Program-made: the position numbers and the translations under genes | The notes under the pieces: generated by a model | Told to the model about the DNA's origin: nothing | Databases searched by the model: none | What the model saw: only the letters and a program-made list of their open reading frames with translations | IMG/VR virus record: IMGVR_UViG_3300033565_000004 | Span: 1 to 57,515 of that record | Direction: 5' to 3' (one strand) | Length of the DNA stretch: 57,515 bases | DNA from: a virus | Lineage: Duplodnaviria > Caudoviricetes | In this document: positions 25,393-34,626 of the stretch, piece by piece | How the letters are laid out: each line of letters starts with the position of its first letter | Numbering within the stretch: the first letter of the stretch is position 1

Positions 25393-26301
25393 TTACTCGT
25401 TTAAATCATCAACAAAACAACCACAGCCGCCGATATCAAACATATCGATTTGCTCCGTTTTATTCGCCTCAACCTCTTCGCGCAACATCCTCAACGTCAG
25501 CGGAATCTTTACCTTATTTCGAGTCCGACGCAGCATGGCGACATCCTTGCCGAGATAATCGCGCATTTCCTGCTCCTTCTCTTCGTGGTAGCGGTAGCGT
25601 GCCGGATTCTTTTCGAGCAGATTAACGAAGTGTCCCTGGCCGGCTCTAACGCAGAAGCCTCCGCAATTGTTGTGGGCAAAATTCATTCCGTAAAGGCGCG
25701 GTACTTCAATTCTTACAGATTCTAGTAATTTGATTGCGTCAATCTTCGTCAGCAGCGGCTCCTCACACATCGGAAATTGTACTGTGTATGGCGCCCAGTT
25801 CTTGACCGGAGCTTTGGTGCGATGCTCCTCCGTCCAATCAATCCCAAGGTACAGTGTCACTTCTTCGGGCTTAAAGTTGGCTTCGATGTACTTTCGCGAC
25901 AAGTCCTGCTTAATTTTGTGCGAACATTGGGCAAGGCGACTATTACCTAGAAACCTAACGTCATGGAATATCTCCCACGGATCTTTACCGCAGTTAATCC
26001 ATACGAAATTAGGATTTCGCTCGCTTACCTTCGCAGCTAGTTCAGTTAGGAACGCTTTTCGGGCAGGCATTGTATCGTGACTAACAGGTGGAATATATGC
26101 GCATTTTGCGATTAAATCGCGCTGGTCAATCCCGTAAATGTATTGCGTCGTCTCGATGAGGAACCGGTATAAATCCTCGTCTTCGATTAGTGTGTCAGTA
26201 AATAAGCAGATAACGTTCTCGGCTCCGTGTGCTGCTACGACCCTTTTCGCGGTCATCCAACTGCCTAGCCCTCCGGAATAAAAGATAATATGTTTCGTCA
26301 A
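25393..26301 (-). CDS. PAPS-reductase-like / PP-loop adenine nucleotide alpha-hydrolase with Cys clusters
   Basis: YSGGLGS PP-loop, CSHKIK, LGID.TE..R, NNCGGFC and GGCGCF. Confidence 0.75.
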   Translation of the reverse strand: MTKHIIFYSGGLGSWMTAKRVVAAHGAENVICLFTDTLIEDEDLYRFLIETTQYIYGIDQRDLIAKCAYIPPVSHDTMPARKAFLTELAAKVSERNPNFVWINCGKDPWEIFHDVRFLGNSRLAQCSHKIKQDLSRKYIEANFKPEEVTLYLGIDWTEEHRTKAPVKNWAPYTVQFPMCEEPLLTKIDAIKLLESVRIEVPRLYGMNFAHNNCGGFCVRAGQGHFVNLLEKNPARYRYHEEKEQEMRDYLGKDVAMLRRTRNKVKIPLTLRMLREEVEANKTEQIDMFDIGGCGCFVDDLNE

Positions 26302-27017: not shown

Positions 27018-27435
27018 TAATTGCGTACCCCTCTCCGTGTCTGCTCCAGTAGTAATAAACTTCCGATATTGCCTCGATGGCGCGATCCAGCAGGTGATTG
27101 ACCGCATCCCTTGCCAGTCCGCCCATCCGTCGCCCTGCCTCTTCCTGCGTCAAGTCCTCTTCGTAGACCAGAGATAATGCGGTTTTTTGCCGCTCCGTTA
27201 AGCCCGCCAACTCCACTGCGTTACGTAAATCCGTCAGCAGAACCACCGCATCATAGTCGCCCTGATATTGCCTATTTATCAGCGCGTGGTAGTCCGATAG
27301 AAGGATGCGTAAGTTTGCTGGCGAGTCTAAAGCGGGATACTTCGCTTCAAGTGACCGCTCTTGCATGTGTAAATCGCGTTTTACGCTTCCGATAATAATT
27401 CGCCCCTTTCGTCTAATTTCGAGATAATTCGTCAT
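27004..27435 (-). CDS. Sigma-70 region 4-like HTH protein (probable late activator)
   Basis: LTERQKTALSLVYEEDLTQEEAGRRMG; the true start may be ATC at 27393. Confidence 0.75.
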   Translation of the reverse strand: MTNYLEIRRKGRIIIGSVKRDLHMQERSLEAKYPALDSPANLRILLSDYHALINRQYQGDYDAVVLLTDLRNAVELAGLTERQKTALSLVYEEDLTQEEAGRRMGGLARDAVNHLLDRAIEAISEVYYYWSRHGEGYAINGGK

Positions 27436-27446
27436 TCTAATCTAAC

Positions 27447-27475
27447 TTGCGCTTATCGTCCTAATTCGTTATAAT
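27447..27475 (+). promoter_or_regulatory. SigA-type promoter
   Basis: TTGCGC-N17-TATAAT upstream of ORF 27511. Confidence 0.7.
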
Positions 27476-27510
27476 GGCGTTAATAAATCCGTAAAAAGGA
27501 CGTGTTGTAA

Positions 27511-27873
27511 ATGTCATTCGAACCGTTAAAATTATCGCGCCACGGAGGATCCGCGCTAGTCATCGATAAACTGCACCGCCTGCGCGTTTCCTCGGCAGCC
27601 ATGCGCGAACTTAAACTCTCCGCCTACCAATACGTCGTTATTAGCGTTGACGTCGAGAATAAACGCATCGGGCTTGCGAAACAAGAGCTCGCCAAGGTGC
27701 CGAATGCTAGCGCCGTTAAAGTAGATAAGCGCGGATATCTCGGCACATCAGCGGGCAAGGAGATCATTGCGAAACTGGCGCTGACTGACGATGTGCTGCC
27801 CGCCAAGTTTGCCGACATTGGCTGGGAAGATCAGAACGGCGTCAGGTGGCGTGCATTTCAATTTTCGGAGTGA
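27511..27873 (+). CDS. Hypothetical protein, possible AbrB/MraZ-like swapped-hairpin DNA binder
   Basis: Own promoter and AAGGA RBS; two D-K-x-x-R/G motifs (IDKLHRL, VDKRGYL). Confidence 0.6.
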   Translation: MSFEPLKLSRHGGSALVIDKLHRLRVSSAAMRELKLSAYQYVVISVDVENKRIGLAKQELAKVPNASAVKVDKRGYLGTSAGKEIIAKLALTDDVLPAKFADIGWEDQNGVRWRAFQFSE

Positions 27874-27882
27874 TTGCCTATT

Positions 27883-28710
27883 TCACTCCGGCGATTCTTT
27901 TATAATCCTTTTTTTTACATCCTTATATATTTCGTCTACCCGGTTTCTTCCGTATATATTTAGCGGTGTATTAATCAATTTGTTATGGTACTCCCGAATG
28001 CCAGAACCGACTTGAAGGTTGCTGTTTTTACGGTAAATATCTTGTTTGGCAAAGTATTTAGAGAAGGCGTCTAAGGACAATTGTTTTTGTTTTGGTTTAT
28101 TTAAGTCAGCCCAAGAAAACTGAAGCATATACTCAATTAACTCTTCATTGCGATAGGGCACTACAAATTTCTTTTTACATATATCCTCAACTAACGTTTT
28201 TATTGGGAGGTATGCGGAAGAATTCAGACTCGAGAGTGTTCTCTTTCGTATAGCATCAAAAACATTTTTATCTTTAGCAGACTTAATCGCTACACTCTTT
28301 GCTGTTCCAAACAAATCATCCGCACATAACCCCGAGACAACAACTGATTCAATGATGTTAGGTAGTACGTAGAGAAATGGAAAAACGCACTGGATATTGG
28401 TTTTTCTATCTACCGGGAGCTCCTTAACAATATATTTAACATCCTCCTGCAGACGTTCAATGTCATCAGGAATTTCAATAATCACATGCTTTAGTCCATA
28501 AAACTCCGCTACTTTCGCACTAATAACGACGTCTTTGTGTACGTTACCTTCAAGATGAAACGTATAAAGCCTAGGGTAAACTCCGATATCAAGCAGCGCA
28601 AAAAGGCAAGTTAAGGAGTCGGTTCCGCCACTAAACAATAGCGCGACATCTTCACGCTCATTAATTTCCGTTTTAAGCACGTTTTGAATAAGCTCTCTAA
28701 ACTTGTGCAT
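27883..28710 (-). CDS. Asparagine-synthetase-like ATP-dependent amide ligase (synthetase domain only)
   Basis: LFSGGTDS PP-loop, SGLCADDLFG (cf. SGEGADELFG), VPY and LQVGSGI; no N-terminal Cys glutaminase domain. Confidence 0.85.
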   Translation of the reverse strand: MHKFRELIQNVLKTEINEREDVALLFSGGTDSLTCLFALLDIGVYPRLYTFHLEGNVHKDVVISAKVAEFYGLKHVIIEIPDDIERLQEDVKYIVKELPVDRKTNIQCVFPFLYVLPNIIESVVVSGLCADDLFGTAKSVAIKSAKDKNVFDAIRKRTLSSLNSSAYLPIKTLVEDICKKKFVVPYRNEELIEYMLQFSWADLNKPKQKQLSLDAFSKYFAKQDIYRKNSNLQVGSGIREYHNKLINTPLNIYGRNRVDEIYKDVKKRIIKESPE

Positions 28711-28711
28711 G

Positions 28712-29899
28712 TTATAACCTCCCTAATGAACATCCATCCGCTGGATAAGTTATTTCTTCACTGATATACCTGTTTTCGCATATGCCGATATTATCATCGA
28801 ATTCACTCCAGTACTTACAGTTGAAACACGGTATAATTTGAGAAGACATATCAAACTCCTGTATTGCTTTTCCTAATGCTTTTATTATCGGAATACTAAC
28901 GCTTCTTGATGGCCGCCTATACAGTTCAATCTCTTTGAATCCTGCGTCTTTTAACGTCATATAAGCGTAATCTGAAAAGCCCTGTAGTCGGAAAACCTCT
29001 TTCGGACTAATTCTCCGGAATCCAACTCCATCATATAAAGCGATGTCAACCGACTGATCAAGCGTCTTTGTCATCCCGTTTTTAATTCGTCCTCGTCGCG
29101 TTTTACTCGTCGTAAAAGTGTAGTCGATAGTCGTCTCGTTAGGAATCGGCTTAAAGTCCGTGTATCCTTGTATAGTACCGTCCTTAATTCGAAACATGCC
29201 GTCGCCTAAAGGCATCAAGAAATCTCCGAATTCAATATATTCGATGTTCTCGACGTCTTTTTCGATGACACTTTCGAGCGATATGCATTGGTCAGCTCCT
29301 TGAGGAAACGGGAAGTTGAAAGTTTTAACATCCGGAAAGTTCTCTTTAATCGCCTTTTTTGTAGTGTCAATTTGTTTAACTTCCGTTATTGTCCAGTCGC
29401 TGCAAACACCTTCCAACACACCTACGATAAAGACTCTGCTACGTTTTTGAGGCAGGCCGAAGTCAGTGGAAGTTAAAATTGTAAAATCAACACAATAGCC
29501 TGCGTCCGAGAGGCTCTTTGCCATTATTGAAATTGTTCTTCTTTTATCGTGATTCAAAAGACCAGGGACATTCTCCATCAATACGTATTTAGGCTTTTTT
29601 TCTTTCGCGATTCGAAGAGCCTCAAAAAATAAATTCCCTGTCTTATATTCAAACCCTAGCCTAGTGCCGTTTATAGAAAAGCCTTGGCAAGGGAACCCTC
29701 CAACTAGTATGTCGTGATCAGGAACATCAGCAGCGTCTATTTTCGTTATATCTCCGTGTACTTCCTTTTCGTTGTGCAGTATTCTATACATTTTACTAGG
29801 AATATCATCTATCTCAGATGTAAACACGCAGTCATATCCTAAAGAATCCAATCCGTACCTAAACCCACCAATTCCCGCAAATAAATCAATGTACCGCAA
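28712..29899 (-). CDS. DNA cytosine-C5 methyltransferase-family enzyme, predicted carboxymethyltransferase
   Basis: Motifs I DLFAGIGG, IV GGFPCQGFS, VI ENV, VIII QKRSR, IX RLQGF; motif X reads SRSV instead of GNSV. Confidence 0.9.
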   Translation of the reverse strand: MRYIDLFAGIGGFRYGLDSLGYDCVFTSEIDDIPSKMYRILHNEKEVHGDITKIDAADVPDHDILVGGFPCQGFSINGTRLGFEYKTGNLFFEALRIAKEKKPKYVLMENVPGLLNHDKRRTISIMAKSLSDAGYCVDFTILTSTDFGLPQKRSRVFIVGVLEGVCSDWTITEVKQIDTTKKAIKENFPDVKTFNFPFPQGADQCISLESVIEKDVENIEYIEFGDFLMPLGDGMFRIKDGTIQGYTDFKPIPNETTIDYTFTTSKTRRGRIKNGMTKTLDQSVDIALYDGVGFRRISPKEVFRLQGFSDYAYMTLKDAGFKEIELYRRPSRSVSIPIIKALGKAIQEFDMSSQIIPCFNCKYWSEFDDNIGICENRYISEEITYPADGCSLGRL

Positions 29900-29911
29900 T
29901 AGAACCCCTCC

Positions 29912-30604
29912 TTATTTTATCGCAATGAACCCCGCGAAATTCCCCCATTTAAAGAACATATCTACGTCTTTAAATCCGACCGAGTTTAGTAGTTTTATAT
30001 TTTCATCAACAGTATTTGGCTTCAGGACTCCACGGATAGAACGTGCTTTATTAAAGATGTCCGCTTCACTAACGCCGTTTCGATGTTTCATATCGTGATA
30101 CATTTCAACCCACATTTCATCGAATCTGGCATTACTTCCAATAACTTTCTCGACCATGATAAAAGCCGCGCCAATATTAAGTCCGTCGTAGATTTTCTTT
30201 ACAACTGCTTGCCTATGTTTTTGCGCGATAAACATCAACGTGAGAATGGACGTAATTAAACTGGCGTTATCAATGACGAAGTGGTTGTCGGTTATGTCTG
30301 CGTGTAAGATTTCAACGTTGCCTATTTCGCGAAATCTTTCGGCAGTTTTCGCTACCATTTCCGGAGACGTATCTATTCCGTGATAATCGACATGTTTATT
30401 CGGATACGTGCGTTCCAAGTTCGTGATGACTTCGCCTAACGAAGTTCCGATGTCATAAACATTTGTATTATCTTCCAGGAACCACCCTGACAGCCCCGTC
30501 ACTAGTTCGTGAATCTCGTTATATAACGGAACGTGGCAACGCACATGCTCATCAAATACCGGAGTGATTTCCGCGTCAAACTTCCAGGTACTTGGCGACA
30601 TCAA
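29912..30604 (-). CDS. cmoA: CmoA-like carboxy-S-adenosylmethionine synthase
   Basis: WKFD...VFDEHV..HVPLY, VYDIGTSLG, NASLITSILTLMF, EK, HDMK..NG.SE..I..K resemble CmoA throughout. Confidence 0.82.
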   Translation of the reverse strand: MMSPSTWKFDAEITPVFDEHVRCHVPLYNEIHELVTGLSGWFLEDNTNVYDIGTSLGEVITNLERTYPNKHVDYHGIDTSPEMVAKTAERFREIGNVEILHADITDNHFVIDNASLITSILTLMFIAQKHRQAVVKKIYDGLNIGAAFIMVEKVIGSNARFDEMWVEMYHDMKHRNGVSEADIFNKARSIRGVLKPNTVDENIKLLNSVGFKDVDMFFKWGNFAGFIAIK

Positions 30605-31182
30605 ATCGCCTCCAATACTGCGTCAACCTGTCGCTTCAAATCGTCAACACTTCCGTCATTAACTATTTCCGCATCCACCGCAAACCCATCAATCGCCAGC
30701 TCCGTAGAATGCACTAAGTCATTTTCGACAAAACTATCGCCAGCCCCTATCGCCCGAGCAATGCGCACCTCATCCGGAGCCGTTACGCGAATCAACGTAA
30801 AGCCATTTTCGCGACACCAGGCGACTTCGTTTTGCTGCCTAACGTCGGTCAGCACGATGCCCACTCGCTCGGCTCCGGTATTTACTCGAAAGTCAATCGC
30901 ACCCTGCACCGATCGCTCAGCGTGCTTAATCCATACGTCCGGGTCGATTTCGCGCATTAGCTGACCGAACTGCTGATATAGCGCCCGTGGCTTGGTGCCG
31001 TCGCTAATCCACGGAAAGACTGCGTGTGCGTTGCGCTTGAGTGCGTCGCCAAACGCCACTCTATCGAAGCCGTGGCGAATATAAAGGTGCTGCGCTACTT
31101 CGTCCTTGCCGGCGCGAAGCTTTCCGCAGATGGCGAGTTTGACGACGGATACTTCCCGATTAACATTTAGCGTGTGCTTCAT
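30601..31182 (-). CDS. Deoxynucleoside monophosphate kinase
   Basis: P-loop GKLRAGKD, FGDALK, R..Y.Q.G...R, DVR..NE and HSTE. Confidence 0.85.
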   Translation of the reverse strand: MKHTLNVNREVSVVKLAICGKLRAGKDEVAQHLYIRHGFDRVAFGDALKRNAHAVFPWISDGTKPRALYQQFGQLMREIDPDVWIKHAERSVQGAIDFRVNTGAERVGIVLTDVRQQNEVAWCRENGFTLIRVTAPDEVRIARAIGAGDSFVENDLVHSTELAIDGFAVDAEIVNDGSVDDLKRQVDAVLEAI

Positions 31183-31694
31183 CGGCTAGCACCTTCGATT
31201 AAATAATCGACTACCCATCTCGGAAGCGTAACTGTGTCCTCCGGTGCATCTTCTTTCGACTGTGTCCGTTCATCTAATTCGCGAATGTCATCCTCGTTTG
31301 ATAACGTTAAGACTTCGATATGCCCTACGCCCCGCTTCAGTTCCTCGAGCTCCTCCGCCTGACGCTCGACGTTGCGCTGTGTGTCGCGTAGTTGAGATTC
31401 AAGCGAAACTATCTTCCGTGATAATGCGGTAAACATTTCGATGACGGCCGGAGAGGCTTGCGATGTGTCGACCGTGACTTCTTCGCCAACTTCGGCAAGT
31501 ACAACGTAATCGTCGTGAAAAAATCCGTGAACGTGTCCGAACGACCTTGCGACGATAGCAAAATAGCCGTCAACATCTTTGACTGTGTACAACTCGCCTG
31601 ACCGATCCGAGTAACTTTTAATTTTATCGCCAACTTCCGCCTTCCGATCGACCTCAACGTAAGTTTTACCGCCAATTACATGCGTTTTACTCAT
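31179..31694 (-). CDS. Hypothetical protein (SH3-like N-terminus plus coiled coil)
   Basis: RKAEVGDKI motif; translational coupling to neighbours. Confidence 0.65.
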   Translation of the reverse strand: MSKTHVIGGKTYVEVDRKAEVGDKIKSYSDRSGELYTVKDVDGYFAIVARSFGHVHGFFHDDYVVLAEVGEEVTVDTSQASPAVIEMFTALSRKIVSLESQLRDTQRNVERQAEELEELKRGVGHIEVLTLSNEDDIRELDERTQSKEDAPEDTVTLPRWVVDYLIEGASR

Positions 31695-32050
31695 TAGTAC
31701 AACTCCTCCAATTCAACCGATTCTTTAACCGCTTGCTCCTCGTCAGGTGTCGCTAAAATATCGATATTGTCTACGATCACTTGGTGCAAAACGTTAGCCG
31801 TCCGATTAATCGTATCCTCGTCTTGCTCTTCCGGATTGTAGCCGGCTTCGAAGTGAATGGCGTGAAGCATCTCGTGGATGATCGTTTGCTCCTTGCGTTC
31901 ATCTGTCATTGCTGAATCGATTTGGATTACGCAATCACCGAATTCCACATTACCGTACATACTTATCTTACGGAGCAGTCCTTCAACCTCGTGTACCGTG
32001 TAAATAGCTCCGCCTACCTTTAGCTGCTTACCGTGAAATGTTCTCGTCAT
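31694..32050 (-). CDS. ImmA/IrrE-like zinc metallopeptidase domain protein
   Basis: TIIHEMLHA (HExxH) plus downstream E. Confidence 0.75.
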   Translation of the reverse strand: MTRTFHGKQLKVGGAIYTVHEVEGLLRKISMYGNVEFGDCVIQIDSAMTDERKEQTIIHEMLHAIHFEAGYNPEEQDEDTINRTANVLHQVIVDNIDILATPDEEQAVKESVELEELY

Positions 32051-32547
32051 TATTTTGCCTCCTCGATAATTCGTATCTGTACGTTCTGCCTTCCGAACTG
32101 GATGGCGCTTGTGTTGTCGCTAATTAAATAATCGATAATCGTTCCGTCTATTTTTCCGCCCGTATCCAAGGCGATGGCTCGCTCGAGCTTTCCGTTTCTG
32201 AACCGTATCTCGACCGTCGTTCCTAGCGGAATCACACTCGGATCAGTTGCGATAATTCGCTTGCCATCGAAGTGCGTCCGATTCCTAACGTCGAGCCCCG
32301 TCTTGGTGATGCCGGAGCATCCTTCGGGACAATCGGCTGTGTAGGCGGTCGCCGTAAAGTCACGCCACTGAGTCGCCTCTAGACGCTTGATTTCGGCTCG
32401 TAAGCGTTCGTTTTCTTGCGTTAATACTTCCGCTTGCTGGCGCCATATTTGCGCTAGAGGAGCGACCTGCTGGGCGACATCCCCTGCGACAATGGAAGGC
32501 GGACTTAGTAGTGAATGCGTGAGTAGCAATGATGTAAGTAATCCGAT
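32050..32547 (-). CDS. 3D-domain cell-wall protein
   Basis: ATAYT, IATDPSVIPLGT and DTGGKI.G..ID motifs; start possibly ATC 32547 (track gives 32529). Confidence 0.88.
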   Translation of the reverse strand: MGLLTSLLLTHSLLSPPSIVAGDVAQQVAPLAQIWRQQAEVLTQENERLRAEIKRLEATQWRDFTATAYTADCPEGCSGITKTGLDVRNRTHFDGKRIIATDPSVIPLGTTVEIRFRNGKLERAIALDTGGKIDGTIIDYLISDNTSAIQFGRQNVQIRIIEEAK

Positions 32548-32559
32548 AGTATCCGCTCC

Positions 32560-33246
32560 TTATTTCGTTAATTCTGTGATGCTTACTGGGAAGTGCGGTT
32601 CGGCGAGCGCTTTGACCGCCTTTGCGTACTCCTGTATTTCGACTTGGCTATCGTGTGCCAGGCGTTGTTGTAAGAAGTGAGCGACCGATTGGAGTGATGC
32701 CGTCCAGTAGTAGCGTACATACATTCCGTAAGCCGGTAGGAATAGGCGTGCTTGCTCTGCGCATACACCTGAGTTCATTGCACGCTCATACAAGCGCTCT
32801 CCGAACGCTACATAGTCGAGCAAATCTTGCGTAGCTATCTTGCCGTGTTCTTCCGGTAAGGTTTCGCCGCTACCTTGCTTAGAATTTTCCGGAGCTGATC
32901 TCCATTCATTTTTATTAGGAATGTAAAACGCAGGTTCTTCGGTAATATACCGCCGACTTGACTCGTTCCAAGCGTCCATAGTGTGATCGCTGCCTACGAT
33001 GTATTTCCAATGCTGGCGGGCTACCATTAAAGGCGCATACATTTCGAATTGAAGCGTTGCATGGCGAAACGGGCTCGTATGTCCTTCGCGTGCTAGGAAG
33101 CGAATTAAGCGCTTATCCTTTTCTGATAGTTCCATAGATTCCTTGTCGTAACTAACCCGCGCTGAGTTTACGACAGATAGGTCGGAGCCCATTACGTTTG
33201 TTAAGCGGACATAACCTTTGTCTAATACGTTAATAATTTCGTTCAT
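32560..33246 (-). CDS. thyX: Flavin-dependent thymidylate synthase
   Basis: SARVSY, H.SPF.H, NESSRRY, EQAR..LP and RL..DSQ.EI motifs. Confidence 0.92.
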   Translation of the reverse strand: MNEIINVLDKGYVRLTNVMGSDLSVVNSARVSYDKESMELSEKDKRLIRFLAREGHTSPFRHATLQFEMYAPLMVARQHWKYIVGSDHTMDAWNESSRRYITEEPAFYIPNKNEWRSAPENSKQGSGETLPEEHGKIATQDLLDYVAFGERLYERAMNSGVCAEQARLFLPAYGMYVRYYWTASLQSVAHFLQQRLAHDSQVEIQEYAKAVKALAEPHFPVSITELTK

Positions 33247-33807
33247 TTATTCGTCCTCCCTCGTTAATAAGCCAAGGTGTTTCCAAGTTTTACCGTGCCT
33301 GATATTCAAAATAGTTTTCTTAGAGACTCCGTATTCCTTCGCTATTGTTGTGCAGCCTCTTATGTCGTTAAAGATATCGAGAACTTGGCTTTCAGTAAGT
33401 TTAGACCCGATAACGGCTTCTCCCACCGGTTTACGCTTTTTGGTAATCATGTCTTTCGTATTCTCTTTGGGAGTTCCTAACGACAGGTGATCTGGATTTA
33501 TACACTCAGGGTTGTCGCATGAATGCATCACAAACTTTTTGTCGTCAATATAGCCGTTTTTAACTTTAAAAACATACCGACTAAGTCTTTGGTGTTTACC
33601 ACCTCTATCTATAACAGGGTAGTTTCTACGGTGTTTAGCCTTAGCATGACTGGTACAAATCCAGCATCCATTTTTGTTAATAAAATACTTAATCTCTTTA
33701 AAACTACCACAGTCTCTTAACGGCACGTATCCGTCATCGAATGTAAACTCAGCGTACTCCGGATGACCCAAAGGAACCACCGCCTCTTTCTGTGTCCTCA
33801 ATCTCAC
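33247..33807 (-). CDS. Free-standing HNH homing endonuclease with C-terminal HTH
   Basis: GCW, VMHSCDNPECINPDHL..GT..EN..DM, SKLTE; AT-rich; start uncertain. Confidence 0.88.
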   Translation of the reverse strand: MRLRTQKEAVVPLGHPEYAEFTFDDGYVPLRDCGSFKEIKYFINKNGCWICTSHAKAKHRRNYPVIDRGGKHQRLSRYVFKVKNGYIDDKKFVMHSCDNPECINPDHLSLGTPKENTKDMITKKRKPVGEAVIGSKLTESQVLDIFNDIRGCTTIAKEYGVSKKTILNIRHGKTWKHLGLLTREDE

Positions 33808-34264
33808 TGACTTCCCTGAAACGCGCGTGCTCGACCTGTGAAATTACGGCCTGACAAATCCGATCACCCTTCCGCACTAGATACGTATTCTCATCGTAAT
33901 AACGTGCGCTACTGTAAATAGTTTCCGTTTTACCGTCGATTGTTGCTAATACGTTACCGGTCCGGTTAACACGTTCCGCAATGTTATCAACAATGACGGA
34001 AACCTCTCCGCGATACGAACTATCGATAGTCCCAAGCTGTACGCGTAACTTTGTACGCAATGTGATTCCGCTTCGTGGCCGGATCTGCATCTCGTAGCCA
34101 GGCGGTAACTCGAACGCCAAGCCCGTAGGAACTAACTTCGTCTCGCCCGGCTCAATTATGACATCCTCCGTTGCGATAAGATCAAAACCCGCATCACCTT
34201 CGCGAGCATATTTCGGAATAACTGCGTCCTCGTTCAGCCGCTTAATTTTAACGTTCAATCTCAT
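33749..34264 (-). CDS. dut: Trimeric dUTPase
   Basis: AGFDL, IRPRSG, GTIDSSYRGE, GDRICQ, RG.GSFGSSG; start MRLNVK at 34264. Confidence 0.93.
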   Translation of the reverse strand: MRLNVKIKRLNEDAVIPKYAREGDAGFDLIATEDVIIEPGETKLVPTGLAFELPPGYEMQIRPRSGITLRTKLRVQLGTIDSSYRGEVSVIVDNIAERVNRTGNVLATIDGKTETIYSSARYYDENTYLVRKGDRICQAVISQVEHARFREVSEIEDTERGGGSFGSSGVR

Positions 34265-34383
34265 CGTATCATCAACCTCCGGTTCTTTTTCCCTTAATTG
34301 TTTCGCATTCAATTCCGCCAGCGTGCACAACACCGAAAACTTGTCGCACATCAGCCGGCGGGCCGTTTTAATCATTCGGTAGC

Positions 34384-34626
34384 TCATTGGATTTTACTAG
34401 CCAACTTCACGTAAACTTTTTCGGTTTCTTTTATTAAGAAATCGTTACAACCGGCTGCATTTTTATCACGAAGAAATTTCAGTAAGTTAGAAACGCGCTC
34501 AAGTTCTGATATTACATCGTGGTTTGACTCCGTCTTATTCCGTATTACACCAGTTCCGTCGCACTTCCGACAAAAGCGAGACAACGATGTATCTCGCCAA
34601 TATACGCAATCACAACCTATTATCAT
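34384..34626 (-). CDS. Hypothetical protein with CxC/CxxCxG zinc finger
   Basis: CDC...CRKCDGTG; GGAGG RBS. Confidence 0.6.
   Translation of the reverse strand: MIIGCDCVYWRDTSLSRFCRKCDGTGVIRNKTESNHDVISELERVSNLLKFLRDKNAAGCNDFLIKETEKVYVKLASKIQ

Follow-up and report, generated by a model that had tools for sequence, protein, structure and literature searches.

Natural carboxymethylation of DNA has been described in the Synechococcus phage S-B43 (Yang et al., Nat Commun 2025; PMC12783734, published December 2025), in which CmoA, a protein with an ancestral role in tRNA modification, makes carboxy-S-adenosyl-L-methionine (Cx-SAM), CmoX makes 5-carboxymethylcytosine (5cxmC) at GC sites, and CmoY, an asparagine-synthetase homologue, ligates glycine to the new carboxyl group. 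In the 1.9 Å structure of this CmoX (SpCmoX; PDB 8YF3), Arg350 replaces Asn304 of the cytosine-C5 methyltransferase (C5-MTase) M.HhaI and contacts the carboxymethyl group of Cx-SAM; the wild-type enzyme accepts Cx-SAM only, and the R350N variant accepts neither Cx-SAM nor S-adenosyl-L-methionine (SAM) (PMC12783734). As the authors of that work point out, this Arg mirrors the engineered substitution N374K in M.MpeI (PMC12783734), and the excerpted text of PMC12015181 and PMC13288465 bears out the statement of the original prediction for the locus considered here that engineered Asn-to-Lys C5-MTases use Cx-SAM, by virtue of a cationic side chain at the motif X site. Here we analyze the C5-MTase gene (hereafter, the MTase) at positions 28712 to 29899, minus strand, of the Caudoviricetes record IMGVR_UViG_3300033565_000004 of IMG/VR, a linear record of 57,515 bases that is estimated to be about 90% complete and that, in its full length, is referred to below as the window.

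By analogy with S-B43, the gene cassette that includes this MTase very probably specifies a cytosine hypermodification of DNA, in which the MTase would act as a Cx-SAM-dependent carboxymethyltransferase by means of an arginine, R332, at the motif X Asn position. The features that bear on this proposal are the following.

27883 to 28710, minus strand: CmoY homologue, an asparagine-synthetase-like amide ligase with a PP-loop (SGGTDS); 275 residues; PF00733, E = 1.3e-8
28712 to 29899, minus strand: CmoX-like predicted DNA cytosine-C5 carboxymethyltransferase; 395 residues, TTG start; PF00145 and TIGR00675 (dcm)
29912 to 30604, minus strand: CmoA homologue, the predicted Cx-SAM synthase; 230 residues; best PDB match 4GEK; phrog_4752
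29675 to 29701, minus strand: motif IV of the MTase, G-G-F-P-C-Q-G-F-S, with the catalytic Cys71 (29687-29689); aligned to GFPCQAFS of M.HhaI, the Gln being kept
28880 to 28924, minus strand: motif X of the MTase, residues L326 to K340, L-Y-R-R-P-S-R-S-V-S-I-P-I-I-K, read from the open reading frame (ORF)
28904 to 28906, minus strand: R332 codon AGA, at the position of M.HhaI Asn304 and SpCmoX Arg350
28913 to 28915, minus strand: R329 codon, the second Arg of R-x-x-R, at the position of M.HhaI Gln301 and SpCmoX Arg347

The MTase, whose translation includes IELYRRPSRSVSIPIIKALGKAI, is the sole C5-MTase in the window and matches PF00145 with E = 2e-72 and 244.8 bits (cut-off 22), residues 1-347 covering positions 1-323 of the 324 in the profile; it also scores 258.4 bits on the TIGR00675 dcm model (cut-off 100.65). 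Its best solved relative by sequence is M.HhaI (E = 7.6e-45, residues 1-159), with M.HaeIII also among the best and Dnmt2 among the weaker PDB matches. Motifs I (FAGIGGF), IV (GFPCQ), VI (ENV) and VIII (QKRSRVF) are canonical and line up residue for residue with their M.HhaI counterparts, so that the earlier claim of otherwise intact catalytic motifs stands. Likewise, the replacement of motif X by Y-R-R-P-S-R-S-V can be read directly from the ORF, and the R332 codon lies where it had been placed: counted from the TTG at 29899, the plus-strand tct is AGA (Arg) on the minus strand. Where C5-MTases have the Gly-Asn of motif X, this protein has Ser-Arg.

Sequence-profile alignments to M.HhaI and to SpCmoX agree in placing this Arg at the conserved motif X Asn. 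In a profile of the window clade, derived from an alignment of 28 of its 30 Arg-type homologues (a 684-residue fusion and a 249-residue fragment were left out), the segment 'ykrPsrsv' aligns to 'YKQFGNSV' of M.HhaI (chain residues 299-306), with R332 at Asn304 and R329 at Gln301. When the same profile is compared by hhalign with SpCmoX (from MN018232), the probability is 98.9 and R-P-s-R-S-V falls on r-v-g-r-m-v, so that R332 corresponds to R350 and R329 to R347. Among the 120 best homologues in a collection of 5.8 billion proteins, Arg is present at both columns in 30 (P0001-P0025, P0028-P0031 and P0036), and these account for 30 of the 36 top-ranked sequences; the remaining 90 have Asn at the second column and Gln, Met or Leu at the first. 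When 1.84 billion cluster representatives were searched exhaustively, the best 150 matches comprised three Arg-type sequences, which ranked at the top, 138 of the Asn type, eight truncated before motif X and one that was misaligned. Given these counts, we conclude that the window clade is real and small. The 50,697 deposited phage genomes contain no member of it; their best-matching MTase is about 35% identical, and in all 1,685 matching phage records the MTase is less than 60% identical to that of the window. The clade is also without an available cultured relative. The residues L326, R329, P330, R332 and P337 show no variation across the 28 aligned clade members; judged from such comparisons of sequence, R332 is not a chance substitution. 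Asn-type MTases reach 61% identity to the window MTase (residues 1-165), and the most distant clade members stand at 53%. As an observation on motif IV of this clade, eight members (P0017-P0020, P0022 and P0028-P0030) have G-I-T-C-Q, with Thr in place of the near-universal Pro of P-C.

The expectation that Arg or Lys at motif X would co-vary with a neighbouring cmoA was examined in loci gathered around MTase relatives from IMG/VR, species-representative genomes and metagenomes, to which S-B43 and a Staphylococcus phage were added; in the 217 loci with an MTase match, the motif X residue was scored by hmmalign and a CmoA homologue was sought in flanks of up to 6 kb per side. The outcome was as predicted, with cmoA nearby in 12 of 14 Arg-type loci and in 0 of 141 Asn-type loci (at least 3 kb available on both sides in 71, at least 1 kb in a further 26 and less in 44), these being raw counts that ignore relatedness. 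The two Arg-type loci that lack cmoA (L142 and L191) begin inside the MTase gene, at the side where the near-identical L140 has cmoA. A single Asp-type locus is without cmoA, and motif X could not be aligned in 61 of the 217 loci, three of which have cmoA, namely S-B43, L002 and Staphylococcus phage F1; by eye, motif X of the first MTase of L002 reads E-R-A-G-R-T-V. Furthermore, an Arg three residues before the motif X Arg is present in all 14 Arg-type loci and in none of the 143 scored Asn- or Asp-type MTase ORFs; the signature of motif X is therefore R-x-x-R rather than a lone substitution.

These distributions also bear on the possibility that the window MTase is an ordinary SAM-dependent enzyme producing 5-methylcytosine (5mC), with a tolerated oddity in motif X and a merely coincidental cmoA neighbour. 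Such an enzyme would be in keeping with the canonical state of all catalytic motifs but X and with passage of the dcm superfamily model. However, we consider this highly improbable, given the contrast between 12 of 14 and 0 of 141 loci, the recurrence of the Arg-cmoA link in four sequence lineages (the window clade, a clade with motif IV G-F-P-C-A-T-F-S, L002 and the Synechococcus phages), the invariance of R329, P330 and R332 throughout the 28 clade members, and the finding that the Arg-to-Asn change in SpCmoX gave no methyltransferase (PMC12783734).

The carboxymethylation reading is further supported by the organization of the cassette, in which CmoA, CmoX and CmoY form one tightly packed, translationally coupled operon unit: the end of the CmoA gene and the MTase start are 12 nt apart, and a gap of 1 nt separates the MTase stop from the CmoY start. 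The same gene trio adjoins the closest relatives, L001 (MTase 72% identical) and L084 (67%), the latter, on a Lederbergia citrisecunda genome contig, being the closest named relative and having the gene order A-X-Y, as in the window. The host of the window virus is accordingly predicted to be a member of the Bacillaceae, which is probable given this relative and the shared order.

The CmoY homologue is 33% identical to SpCmoY over 263 of its 275 residues (E = 2e-43), and its alignment with five homologues contains 33 invariant columns, with those of the PP-loop motif SGG.(D/G)S among them. Like SpCmoY, it has no glutaminase domain; because this domain is absent, our guess, by analogy, is that the amine it joins is probably glycine or another amino acid.

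The CmoA homologue has its best PDB matches in E. coli CmoA (4GEK, E = 3.2e-34) and H. influenzae YecO, and is 34% identical to SpCmoA. The original prediction had attached a caveat to this partner, namely that its Arg appeared shifted by one relative to the E. coli enzyme, and the shift is confirmed: the column of E. coli R199 (chain residue 213 of 4GEK), a residue that presumably has a functional role, is occupied by the Ala of N-K-A-R-S, and an Arg stands at +1. The window protein in fact has Arg at both +1 and +4 of this column, and SpCmoA has Glu in the column itself, Lys at +1 and Arg at +4. Since SpCmoA, which is biochemically validated and outpaces E. coli CmoA tenfold (PMC12783734), is also without Arg at the R199 column, the caveat is defused. 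Nine of 20 aligned phage and prophage CmoA homologues, those of the window, its clade and S-B43 included, have the +4 Arg; it occurs, as 'I-R-G-V' or 'L-R-D-M' and without the R199 Arg, in the window, L001, L002, L003, L004, L084, L140, L221 and L225, and is thus common to the CmoAs of the window, its relatives, and the Staphylococcus and Synechococcus phages. Two other patterns were seen at this site: K-R-x-S-L-E-G-V in E. coli-like phage CmoAs (L047, L223 and L224), and K-E-M-S-L-A-G-V, with neither Arg, in the CmoA partners of the G-F-P-C-A-T-F-S MTase clade.

With the cofactor, the product, the substrate of the ligase and the protective role all modelled on the published S-B43 system, the following pathway can be proposed. 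CmoA would convert SAM and prephenate to Cx-SAM; the MTase would flip the target cytosine, with Cys71 of P-C-Q attacking C6, and would move the carboxymethyl group of Cx-SAM to C5, yielding 5cxmC. R332, and probably also R329, would bind the carboxylate of the cofactor, so that Cx-SAM would be preferred over SAM. CmoY would then adenylate the new carboxyl and join an amine to it, and the DNA so modified would be expected to resist host restriction.

The cofactor step could be less exclusive than this, if the Arg widened rather than switched the choice, such that the enzyme took carboxymethyl groups from Cx-SAM and also methyl groups from SAM, and the phage DNA were a mix of 5mC and 5cxmC or its amide. 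Engineered Asn-to-Lys enzymes still methylate with SAM, and M.MedI-N377K forms 5mC, according to the excerpted text of PMC12015181; the window MTase, moreover, keeps P-C-Q and in its N-terminal domain reaches up to 61% identity with Asn-type MTases. Yet wild-type SpCmoX took Cx-SAM only (PMC12783734), and the strictness with which cmoA accompanies Arg-type genes suggests dependence on cmoA, so that we regard such dual cofactor use as unlikely. With respect to the substrate, it is also conceivable that the enzyme uses Cx-SAM on something other than the DNA of the phage itself, such as RNA or host DNA only, in line with the ancestral role of CmoA (PMC12783734) and with the tRNA activity of some C5-MTase homologues, such as the Dnmt2 proteins among the weaker PDB matches. 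This appears the least probable of the alternatives, considering that the best structural relatives by sequence, M.HhaI and M.HaeIII, are DNA enzymes, that the full target-recognition domain is shared with DNA MTase homologues, and that the homologous S-B43 system modifies phage DNA (PMC12783734).

Cx-SAM-dependent carboxymethylation of phage DNA thus remains our preferred interpretation, and several observations weigh against it. The census reported with SpCmoX, which yielded 5,615 candidates, required R350 together with 'SPPC' (S95 P96 P97 C98) (PMC12783734), and the window MTase has G-F-P-C in the place of the latter, and some clade members have G-I-T-C; 'SPPC' is, however, the search filter of that paper and not a feature shown to be necessary for the chemistry. 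The window MTase also keeps the Gln of P-C-Q and has Pro-Ser in place of x-Gly before the Arg, and its cofactor pocket may differ from that of SpCmoX. The predicted orientation of R332 toward the cofactor derives from homology to 8YF3 at 26% identity. On TIGR00740 the CmoA homologue reaches 162 bits, short of the equivalog cut-off (193.3), with CmoA still its best family. Relatedness among loci inflates the raw co-variation: just one independent contrast is well supported, and counting every branch raises this to no more than four, which does not suffice for a sign test. Finally, Arg is not needed for linkage to cmoA, given that an MTase with Gly at the motif X Asn position lies beside cmoA in the Staphylococcus phages F1 and SPbeta-like and in L002.

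These Gly-type MTases (L004:7506-8513 in vB-SscS-F1, L221:5693-6691, annotated hhaIM, in the SPbeta-like phage (KT429160), and L002:5165-6184) have the motif X 'A-Y-D-V-V-G-G-V-I-N-Q'; a CmoY homologue is also found beside the gene in F1 and L002, and in L002 an Arg-type and a Gly-type MTase stand in tandem. They may represent a third way of using Cx-SAM, or they may be ordinary MTases. Elsewhere beside cmoA, motifs IV and X occur in the pairs G-F-P-C-A-T-F-S with E-R-C-G-R-T-V and G-F-P-C-F-A-F-S with E-R-A-G-R-T-V. The G-F-P-C-A-T-F-S clade, in which Ala replaces the Gln of motif IV, comprises nine IMG/VR loci (L047, L062, L066, L067, L069, L079, L080, L082 and L083), each with cmoA immediately downstream and none with a CmoY homologue, and plain 5cxmC is therefore the product to be expected. 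A subclade of the window clade (L140, L142 and L191) has the motif X L-Y-A-R-P-S-R-S-I-T and the order cmoA, MTase and ribonucleotide reductase genes, again with no CmoY homologue.

As regards the history of the Arg type, a quick tree and a tree from a careful IQ-TREE run were inferred from 57 hand-picked rows (10 of the window clade, 6 of the nine G-F-P-C-A-T-F-S loci, L002, SpCmoX, 2 Gly-type and 37 Asn-type) over 166 columns of the catalytic domain that exclude motif X. In the careful tree, Arg-type rows are spread over four positions, and at each of them a well-supported group unites them with Asn-type neighbours; at minimum, four label changes are forced by the well-supported branches, and in no bootstrap tree does the Asn type fall on one side of a branch. 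The Gly-type Staphylococcus phage MTases group with the window clade (98/98). Holding all cmoA-linked MTases as one clade cost 38.9 log-likelihood units in the careful tree (p-AU 0.024), a marginal rejection, and 32.4 units in the quick tree (p-AU 0.063), which is no rejection; the group so tested, which includes the Gly type, was fixed after the first tree had been seen, and SpCmoX is a very long branch. As far as these sequences go, the trees lend moderate support, falling short of proof, to multiple origins of Arg-type MTases or to exchange of the C-terminal segment.

Going further, we advance tentatively, and at rather less than even odds, the scenario that the window MTase represents a second, independently evolved lineage of natural carboxymethyltransferases, with HhaI-like Asn-type MTases having been turned into users of Cx-SAM more than once by the same pair of motif X changes (Gln to Arg and Asn to Arg) and with capture of cmoA each time. 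Under this scenario, the lineage in Bacillaceae phages, with its own target-recognition domain and a diverged CmoY, would place a carboxymethyl-derived base in a different target sequence, possibly with a different amine, and the Gly type would be a third way of accommodating Cx-SAM.

Three further features belong to the same region.

28715 to 28837, minus strand: C-terminal extension of the MTase with four Cys (C358-x2-C361, C374 and C390), the last 40 residues; no Pfam match
29907 to 29911, minus strand: Shine-Dalgarno sequence GGAGG, 7 nt before the MTase TTG (29899) and immediately past the CmoA stop
30601 to 31182, minus strand: deoxynucleoside monophosphate (dNMP) kinase gene (PF21448, phrog_139), a neighbour in the same operon but outside the pathway

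All four Cys of the extension are present in only 4 of 28 clade members (P0001-P0004), and they may form a small zinc-binding module. The dNMP kinase gene shares its final 4 nt with the start of the CmoA gene, and all 32 ORFs of at least 200 residues in the window are on the minus strand. A scan of 27300-34600 for promoters and terminators returned fewer sites than did shuffled sequence, counting short palindromes across the window did not point to a target sequence for the MTase, and comparison of 20 kb of the window with the 50,697 phage records found no near-identical DNA. On the same strand, 1.6 kb downstream of the cassette, lies a gene for a 302-residue PP-loop protein (25393-26301) that matches phrog_424, annotated as phosphoadenosine phosphosulfate reductase (E = 1.5e-46), and has no Pfam or NCBIfam match. 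CmoA homologues also occur in other settings. In L223 (Alcaligenes phage Afa-NA1) and L224 (Erwinia phage pEa_SNUABM_30), a CmoA homologue is present, and the 8 kb to each side of it contain no C5-MTase; in L222 (MT835562, 4956-5750, a record labelled as a phage), a homologue 41.5% identical to that of the window lies amid two ABC transporter genes and genes for predicted membrane methyltransferase-like proteins, a setting suggestive of a small-molecule pathway and not of DNA modification. These three records have no bearing on the Arg question.

Taken as a whole, the observation of the Arg is confirmed, and its interpretation as the mark of a carboxymethyltransferase is supported and no longer new: the proposal of a natural equivalent of M.MpeI N374K gains from the position of R332 on SpCmoX R350 and from the CmoA and CmoY neighbours, and the mechanism has already been published. 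With the chemistry and the role of the Arg in print, no new field is opened. The window adds a divergent variant, which would have escaped the published census because the stated filter of the latter required 'SPPC' and the window MTase keeps P-C-Q. The natural carboxymethyltransferases would thus form a larger family than the census indicated, one that is better sought by R-x-x-R at motif X. Moreover, the present comparison suggests that carboxymethylation was reached by the Asn-to-Arg route on more than one occasion. If the Arg switch indeed arose several times, it would constitute a simple, repeatable path to a new DNA modification, which would fit the success of single-residue engineering. 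The target-recognition domains of the window clade, being unrelated to that of the GC-specific SpCmoX, could yield carboxymethyltransferases of new specificity, which might serve labelling and sequencing procedures at present dependent on engineered CG and GC enzymes.

In comparison with known systems, the window MTase shares with M.HhaI and the Asn-type enzymes motifs I, IV, VI, VIII and IX that are identical in type, and departs from them at motif X, which is Y-K-Q-F-G-N-S-V in M.HhaI and Y-R-R-P-S-R-S-V in the window. The MTases of Staphylococcus phages vB-SscS-F1 and SPbeta-like resemble it in adjoining cmoA, with a CmoY homologue in F1 as well, and in having a target-recognition domain related to that of the window (31% identity over 336 residues); they differ in the Gly of 'Y-D-V-V-G-G-V-I' at the Asn/Arg position. 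The likeness to S-B43 extends to the same three genes, adjacent and on one strand, to an Arg at the position of HhaI Asn304 with a second Arg three residues earlier (R-P-S-R in the window, R-V-G-R in SpCmoX), and to CmoA and CmoY proteins that are 34% and 33% identical, respectively, both CmoY proteins being about 270 residues long and without a glutaminase domain. In contrast, the identity of 26% between SpCmoX and the window MTase covers only the N-terminal 192 residues (BLASTP); motif IV is G-F-P-C-Q in the window, as in M.HhaI, and S-P-P-C-S in SpCmoX; the gene order is A-X-Y rather than A-Y-X; the tail with four Cys is found in the window MTase, unlike SpCmoX; and in the tree the two enzymes fall in different supported groups, each with Asn-type neighbours. 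The target-recognition domains of the two do not align, so the target in the window need not be GC. Finally, the window MTase shares with M.MpeI N374K and M.MedI N377K the cationic residue at the motif X Asn position. Whereas those enzymes are, according to the excerpted text of the papers cited above, laboratory point mutants with Lys that still use SAM and are CG-specific, the window enzyme is natural, has Arg together with three further changes in motif X (Q to R, x to P and G to S), and is accompanied by the phage's own gene for a predicted Cx-SAM synthase.

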